Shown piece by piece: positions 24,392 to 24,871 of a stretch of DNA of 64,000 nucleotides. The DNA comes from Schmidtea polychroa (Eukaryota): positions 204,600,001 through 204,664,000 of the forward strand of contig CM097885.1 in NCBI GenBank assembly GCA_044892525.1, written 5' to 3'. The position numbers and the translations under genes were made by a program. The notes under the pieces were generated by a model, which worked only from the letters and a program-made list of their open reading frames with translations, did no database searches and had not been told where the DNA came from. The number at the start of each line of letters is the position of its first letter. Within the stretch, counting starts at the first letter, position 1.

Positions 24392-24871
24392 ATGTCAGGA
24401 GCCCGACAACATCTACAACAACTAAGCCGGTTCGTCGACATAGAAAACGATTCCATAAAGACGTTAAGAGAAAAACTGCAACAAATAGAAACCCTAGAGC
24501 AACAACGCCACAACGCACCGCTGATATCCAAACAAAACTTTCTAACCGACAGATTGGGGTCAACAAATACCGACACCGACTTGTCTGTCCATTACCAATG
24601 GATGCAGCAACGACTCGACGACCCCGCTCTGAACCTCGAATATGTGAGAATACGCGAACAAGTAAAAACTCTGTCTCAGAGAATACGAACCTCGATAATA
24701 GAAAAAGCAGCGGCCTTGAGAACTTGTAACATTTGTAAGACGCGACCTGCCAGAATTCTAATTCTACCTTGTGGACACCTTAGCCATTGCGACGAATGCG
24801 CCGTCAGTTTAACGCATTGTTCTTTATGTGTATGTGCAATAAAGGAGAAGCACACGATTTACTTCAGTTAA
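24392..24871 (+). CDS. IAP/MDM2-type C-terminal RING E3 ligase-like protein (159 aa), no BIR domain
   Basis: C-x2-C-x11-C-G-H-x3-C-x2-C-x6-C-x2-C followed by the terminal tail IKEKHTIYFS*, as in IAP RING tails. Coiled-coil N-terminus. Confidence 0.85.
   Translation: MSGARQHLQQLSRFVDIENDSIKTLREKLQQIETLEQQRHNAPLISKQNFLTDRLGSTNTDTDLSVHYQWMQQRLDDPALNLEYVRIREQVKTLSQRIRTSIIEKAAALRTCNICKTRPARILILPCGHLSHCDECAVSLTHCSLCVCAIKEKHTIYFS

Follow-up and report, generated by a model that had tools for sequence, protein, structure and literature searches.

What is an IAP-type RING, in a protein lacking the BIR domain, doing between the primer-binding site and the gag gene of a giant retroelement, and is it a gene at all? 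The question is raised by an ORF on the forward strand of a 64,000-nt stretch of the Schmidtea polychroa contig CM097885.1 (positions 204,600,001 to 204,664,000), hereafter the window, in whose coordinates positions are given. Here, I argue that this leader RING is a genuine accessory gene, kept by selection in a family of elements already known, and that its residue pattern points to a regulatory RING.

The ORF lies in an LTR retroelement of 30,084 nt, flanked by a 4-bp target duplication, whose parts are the following.

19895..23958, + strand: 5' LTR of 4064 nt, with TG...CA ends and the target duplication CTGG
22656..23417, + strand: LTR-encoded ORF of 253 aa, with TTTAG directly before its ATG and no Pfam match
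23966..23983, + strand: primer-binding site, an 18-nt match to the 3' end of the host tRNA-Pro(TGG), 7 nt past the LTR end
24392..24871, + strand: leader RING ORF, 159 aa
26912..40690, + strand: Gag (Retrotrans_gag, CCHC), ubiquitin-like, Monjiviricetes-type fusion protein, protease, RT, RNase H, integrase and ankyrins, from Pfam matches
41389..42777, + strand: element-encoded TRAF (RING, zinc fingers, MATH), with a coiled-coil ORF directly after it
45912..49978, + strand: 3' LTR, 99.5% identical to the 5' LTR

The leader RING ORF begins 426 nt after the exact tRNA-Pro primer site and is thus placed between the 5' LTR with its primer-binding site and gag, whose ATG is at 26912; in the window copy the polyprotein is spread over three frames, with breaks near 29850 and 32400. 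Judged by its layout, the host element is a Burro-type giant gypsy-like element: it exceeds 30 kb, has LTRs of 4.06 kb, an env-like fusion protein between gag and pol, ankyrins and a TRAF/MATH gene, with Pfam matches to the fusion protein (PF24664), Ank and MATH. The Burro / GYPSM1 elements of planarians are likewise described as gypsy-like, over 30 kb long and endowed with multi-kb LTRs (PMC6431247). No BCL2-like motif was matched by Pfam in the window element at E 0.05. What I take to be a BH2-like word was seen by eye in the ORF 29867-32356.

Some further features of the element and its surroundings may be recorded here. The distance from the terminal CA of the LTR to the primer site (gap 23959-23965) is 7 nt, the usual gap being about 2 nt, and it is similar in the sister family described below. 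No purine-rich tract precedes the 3' LTR (45870-45911); its place is taken by a GC-rich motif, and the sister family, too, has a similar motif. Between the RING ORF and gag, the leader contains an array of short tandem repeats (25447-25642). On the minus strand the window holds related LTR sequence (5800-12500, 74-79% identical), in which the LTR-encoded ORF occurs twice.

The stand-alone ORF, which closes on IYFS-stop, encodes an IAP-type C3HC4 RING and is a real gene. Its sole Pfam match is zf-C3HC4_3, at aa 110-151 (E 1.2e-8; 35 bits, the cut-off being 27), and its spacing, C-x2-C-x11-C-x-H-x3-C-x2-C-x6-C-x2-C, is that of the IAP-type dimeric RINGs. The solved structures closest in sequence are the RINGs of cIAP1, cIAP2, XIAP and BIRC7 (E 1.3e-8 to 1.6e-6), which align without gaps and with identical cysteine spacing, and the same four are again the best matches in a Foldseek search with the AlphaFold model (pLDDT 83; best E 1.7e-3). 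Neither a UBA nor a CARD was found in the protein, nor a BIR by Pfam, the predicted model being all-helical plus RING; lacking a BIR, the protein is not an IAP. The profile search and the structural relatives therefore agree with the original prediction of a BIR-less, IAP-type RING, and the tail keeps the aromatic that cIAP1 uses in trans (F616). The protein is divided as follows.

24392..24721, + strand: N-terminal all-helical region, aa 1-110, conserved across three lineages and without a specific fold or family match
24725..24829, + strand: C3HC4 RING core, C112-C146, of IAP spacing, loop 2 reading CSLCV instead of CPxCR
24830..24868, + strand: C-terminal tail of 13 residues, whose Tyr157, at the position of cIAP1 F616, is the same in all 39 distinct RINGs

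Relatives of the whole protein are few. A protein database search with the leader ORF returned none of 77 candidates at E 0.001, a profile of the N-terminal region found only two proteins, both of the sister-family type, and a profile search of 1.84 billion representatives gave a single full-length relative (P0002), the remaining matches being confined to the RING. As a single domain, the N-terminal region is poorly modelled (pLDDT 65, pTM 0.30) and matches helical structures only in a generic way (best Z 8.7, rmsd 2.9, 88 aligned); a fold search of it in the Atlas gave no usable match. The viral structure matches of the leader protein, all of them with E above 0.001, include many small proteins made up of helices and a RING. 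A UBA origin of the N-terminal region, suspected by eye, is unsupported, as the profile match to B-IAP, the BIR-RING protein of the sister family, covers only the 57 RING columns.

Copies of the gene were gathered in two ways. Among 150 scored genomic matches, which were ranked by similarity and are hence a biased sample, 131 are free of internal stops. The second sample was anchored at the primer site, whose exact word occurs 1077 times; 60 of the first 63 listed sites were taken, three tandem neighbours being left out. The leader RING gene is present at 41 of these sites, with no match at the other 19, and it falls into three lineages, namely A, the window's own (8 of 8 copies intact), B, about 46% identical to it (11 of 11), and C, that of the sister family (16 of 22), with 26% identity over the full length. 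It is accordingly intact in all 19 copies of the window family (A and B), and the six broken genes among the 41 all belong to lineage C and share their breaks. Even at 26% identity the ORF keeps a length of 154-161 codons. The 19 loci without a match (L126 and 18 others) belong to elements that lack the leader RING and show nothing similar to gag within 3.7 kb.

Selection has been acting on the protein. Relative to the window copy, dN/dS is 0.08-0.23 in the 32 similarity-picked copies with a measurable dS above 0.1 and 0.22-0.46 in six nearly identical ones, with saturation for 10 (8 of 60 loci, having no ORF that fitted the strict pattern, were left out of this set). The primer-anchored set gives 0.13-0.26 in seven comparisons with a measurable dS above 0.1 and 0.37-0.41 in two near-identical ones, eight being saturated; the N-terminal helical region is likewise under purifying selection. 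With 131 of 150 matches free of stops and dN/dS well below 1, the ORF is not a product of chance, and the leader RING gene is family-wide and under purifying selection (dN/dS about 0.1-0.25). The original prediction had been staked on conservation across copies, disruption in most of them being the outcome that counted against it, and in both samples conservation prevails. For comparison, dN/dS of the gag N-terminus in the primer-anchored set is 0-0.03; the leader RING is thus selected, yet evolves about ten times faster than the capsid gene. Two of the six broken copies, when followed, proved to be a gag-only derivative of the sister family, with an open gag, no match to pol and another LTR less than about 9 kb away; decay of the leader RING where gag stays open fits a diffusible product. 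Loci L141, L150, L161, L163, L171 and L172, and also L184 and L187, represent a derivative of the sister family that is short and young, its leader RING decayed, its gag open and pol without a match.

How such a gene might be expressed from a place upstream of gag is suggested by two features.

20400..20460, + strand: TATA-like box (20400-20406), putative 25-nt first exon (20430-20454) and donor CAG/GTAAAG, a candidate common leader of the RING mRNA
24381..24389, + strand: T-rich tract and YAG that resemble a splice acceptor, 2 nt ahead of the RING ATG

A YAG stands 0-2 nt before the leader ATG in 86 of 87 intact copies, in lineages with differing flanks; in the primer-anchored set it precedes 34 of 35 leader RINGs against 47 of 494 other ATG contexts, the copies amounting to three lineages only. 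Owing to this conserved acceptor just before the ATG, the leader RING is probably expressed from a spliced LTR leader, the putative donor being at 20454/20455 in the 5' LTR; the repeat-plus-donor layout recurs in 7 of the 12 related stretches tested. A common leader is likely spliced to each accessory gene. Contigs from a presumed-RNA run cover the ORF and pass unspliced through the acceptor, no joint being seen in them, and are uninformative either way. The position upstream of gag, which the original prediction had regarded as unusual, is real and is readily explained by the splice acceptor before the ATG, but it is common to Burro families and has a precedent in plant Tat elements.

Two observations concern the same signals. 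At positions 20430-20500, and at the corresponding site of the 3' LTR, an intron-like GT...AG stretch of 46 nt is enclosed by an exact direct repeat of 25 nt, and the 3' end of the stretch copies the putative first exon. Most of the 3' accessory ORFs (at 40940, 41389, 43062 and 44210, and those of the sister family) have an AG 0-3 nt before the ATG.

Whether the RING can act as a ligase depends on its E2/ubiquitin face, which was compared in 39 distinct natural RING-plus-tail sequences from 87 intact ORFs of the three lineages. The reference residues in cIAP1 are V573 and M575, both in contact with the E2, the linchpin R606, and F616, through which the tail of the partner holds ubiquitin in trans (PMC6349121). 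The 39 leader RINGs all share the eight zinc ligands and the tail Tyr that corresponds to F616; the tail has 13 residues, or 14 in lineage B. At the M575 position, all 39 have K, R or E; none has the loop-2 Pro; the linchpin is Arg in one, Lys in nine and D, V, A, T or S in the other 29. The V573 position is small or polar in most lineage-B sequences, while lineages A and C retain Ile at 573, a hydrophobic residue at 604 and Leu/Ile at 599. Three of the four canonical contact positions (V573, M575, loop-2 Pro and linchpin) are therefore changed in all lineages. CPxCR, on the other hand, is retained in B-IAP and in six of six non-Burro host C3HC4_3 RINGs of the same genome (10 loci were fetched, the other four being B-IAP copies), so that the host E2s have presumably not drifted from the usual pattern. 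The second E3 module of the original prediction becomes doubtful for these reasons, the contacts departing in all three lineages and being kept by the B-IAP and host RINGs.

The meaning of such departures varies among known RINGs. XIAP is active without the linchpin Arg, its Glu variant being only marginally weaker, whereas variants of the RNF38 linchpin other than Arg, Lys and Met have minimal activity (PMC12326332); TRIM32 is active with Ser at that position. Among 140 unrelated RING matches, a set selected with a Pro-less profile and of unknown activity (149 matches less 9 in which the motif was missing), 66 have no loop-2 Pro and 14 present all three departures.

The sister family brings in a second RING. 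A BIR search of the genome uncovered a large family of intronless BIR-RING ORFs; in both sister-family copies examined this gene lies 3' of pol beside the TRAF, and both elements also have a lineage-C leader RING after the primer site. The BIR-RING gene is likely the published B-IAP, and the sister family, to go by its layout, is probably Burro1, whose B-IAP reportedly shields stem cells against death through caspases (Lee et al., Dev Cell 2026; PMC13465017). At the corresponding place beside the TRAF, the window element has no BIR gene, and B-IAP is absent from all 18 lineage A and B regions with the TRAF junction (20 regions were fetched); with the window family carrying the leader RING and no B-IAP, the former is the more widely kept of the two. 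A quick tree of 102 RINGs over 60 columns, a weak one with 61 of its 99 inner branches open, groups six leader RINGs (SH-aLRT 85) apart from B-IAP. The leader RING and B-IAP are separate genes, each with its own slot of origin. The host IAP set is incomplete, for the PF00653 and PF13920 searches of the genome were swamped by B-IAP copies. Three host RING exons (L196, L197 and L198) have extended tails resembling that of B-IAP and are a candidate source family for it. An IAP-like protein (P0024) has two RINGs, the second without the loop-2 Pro and linchpin and with a standard tail.

A kept tail together with a relaxed E2 face recalls the division of labour known from MDMX. Inactive MDMX donates its last three residues in trans (PMC7190642), and TRIM51, which is without the Pro/Phe core, is inactive and represses TRIM49 (PMC11992055). 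I therefore lean, tentatively and at somewhat short of an even chance, to the view that the leader RING is an MDMX-like, E2-weak dimer partner that tunes IAP-type ligases rather than a good ligase alone. A short LTR exon would be spliced to the acceptor before the RING ATG; the product would dimerise through the pre-RING helix and the tail, and its own E2 binding would be weak; it would act in trans on an active IAP-type RING, be it the B-IAP of the sister family or a host ligase, its tail Tyr either assisting the E2~ubiquitin of the partner or titrating it; and the element would benefit through survival of the host cell. In the window family, which lacks B-IAP, such a partner would need an outside source. 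A more ambitious version appears rather unlikely, namely that Burro elements encode an MDMX-like pseudo-ligase that predates B-IAP, is more widespread and supplies its tail to IAP-type ligases whose catalytic faces are intact and whose tails are longer (B-IAP and its host relatives), so that BIR-less families tune the anti-death ligases of the host or of sister elements in trans. Poisoning of IAP dimers, also put forward in the original prediction, is possible, but an MDMX-like helper would account at least equally well for the invariance of the tail aromatic.

The dimer-partner reading has its own difficulties: XIAP and TRIM32 do without the linchpin Arg, lineages A and C partly keep the contacts, 14 of the 140 unrelated RING matches share all three departures and 66 the loss of the Pro, and the invariant tail Tyr would suit an active homodimer equally well. 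The leader RING may, with a smaller though still appreciable chance, be a weak or E2-selective homodimeric ligase, whose helical N-terminus would recruit a host restriction or cell-death protein, or a protein of the element, for ubiquitination by the RING dimer. Intact zinc ligands, tail length and tail Tyr speak for such a ligase, as do the precedent of XIAP, the purifying selection on the N-terminal region, the helical-plus-RING proteins frequent among the viral structure matches (E above 0.001) and the persistence of the gene in a family without B-IAP. It has to contend with three contact positions changed in all lineages and a fourth in lineage B, with a linchpin that varies freely (D, V, K, A, T, S, R), and with the active pattern kept by host and B-IAP RINGs.

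Ubiquitin may also be beside the point. A zinc scaffold employed in particle assembly, in trafficking or in the control of element RNA or transcription would agree with the altered E2 face, with the vicinity of gag and with the retention of the gene, unlike B-IAP, in every coding lineage examined. This is unlikely, however, given the invariance of the surface aromatic that contacts ubiquitin in trans; evolution about ten times faster than that of gag, and loss in the gag-only derivative, are moreover unlike a core structural part.

The original prediction had further proposed that the RING pairs with the element's own TRAF, which would rebuild a signalling ligase like cIAP-TRAF2. Both genes are indeed present in the window, in all 18 informative copies of the family and in both sister-family copies examined, as would be expected of any core accessory genes in one element. 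cIAPs bind TRAF2 via BIR1 and not via the RING; with no BIR in the leader protein the pairing is unsupported and I regard it as quite improbable, the more so as in the sister family it is the BIR gene, not the leader RING, that adjoins the TRAF.

That the ORF is a captured IAP fragment decaying without function, for which a transcript not demonstrated and six broken genes among 41 might be adduced, is largely refuted and scarcely credible in view of dN/dS far below 1 with dS up to saturation, a codon length kept at 26% identity and an acceptor conserved where the flanks differ.

To sum up, the leader RING is a second, separate IAP-type RING of Burro elements, and an abundant family carries it without any BIR gene. 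Burro1 has been reported to aid stem-cell survival and regeneration of planarians through B-IAP (PMC13465017); RNAi or in situ experiments aimed at the IAP of Burro have a second candidate to consider, since the leader RING is separate and more widely kept. Outside Grohme 2018, Lee 2026 and the supplements, whose maps may show the ORF, a literature search on Burro and on RING ORFs upstream of gag met no description of a leader RING gene, nor of an MDMX-type regulator of host cell-death ligases borne by a retroelement, which is what the leader RING would be if the pseudo-ligase reading were true.

Several known systems share parts of this arrangement. With Burro / GYPSM1 the window family has in common the order of Gag, ubiquitin-like, env-like fusion protein and then pol with ankyrins, the TRAF/MATH cargo and the themes of apoptosis and ubiquitin; it differs in having no BIR gene and a polyprotein without MATH, and the motif list in the portion of that source drawn on here (BIR, MATH, BCL2-like, AIR1, Smc and ankyrin) includes no stand-alone leader RING gene (PMC6431247). 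The B-IAP of Burro1 is, like the leader gene, an IAP-type RING borne by an element. In this genome, however, B-IAP has 392-393 aa with BIR and RING; its gene is one of the 3' accessory block, its RING retains CPMCR and its tail comprises 16 residues, whereas the leader gene is separate and BIR-less, its RING being 27-33% identical, and the two coexist in the sister family. Plant Tat/Ogre elements, which are also large and gypsy-type, carry extra ORFs 5' of gag, yet those encode plant-mobile-domain or Tr28 proteins and not a RING (PMC4408406).

At the protein level, the RINGs of cIAP1, cIAP2, XIAP and BIRC7 share with the leader RING the cysteine spacing, the pre-RING helix, the 13-residue tail and the aromatic third from the end; the leader protein departs from them by the absence of BIR, UBA and CARD and by the altered M575, loop-2 Pro and linchpin positions (PMC6349121). 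The likeness to MDMX (MDM4) and to the pair TRIM51/TRIM49 concerns the proposed mode of action, a weakly active RING that would work through an active partner; homology to them stops at the RING fold, and the leader gene, unlike theirs, travels on a mobile element (PMC7190642, PMC11992055).
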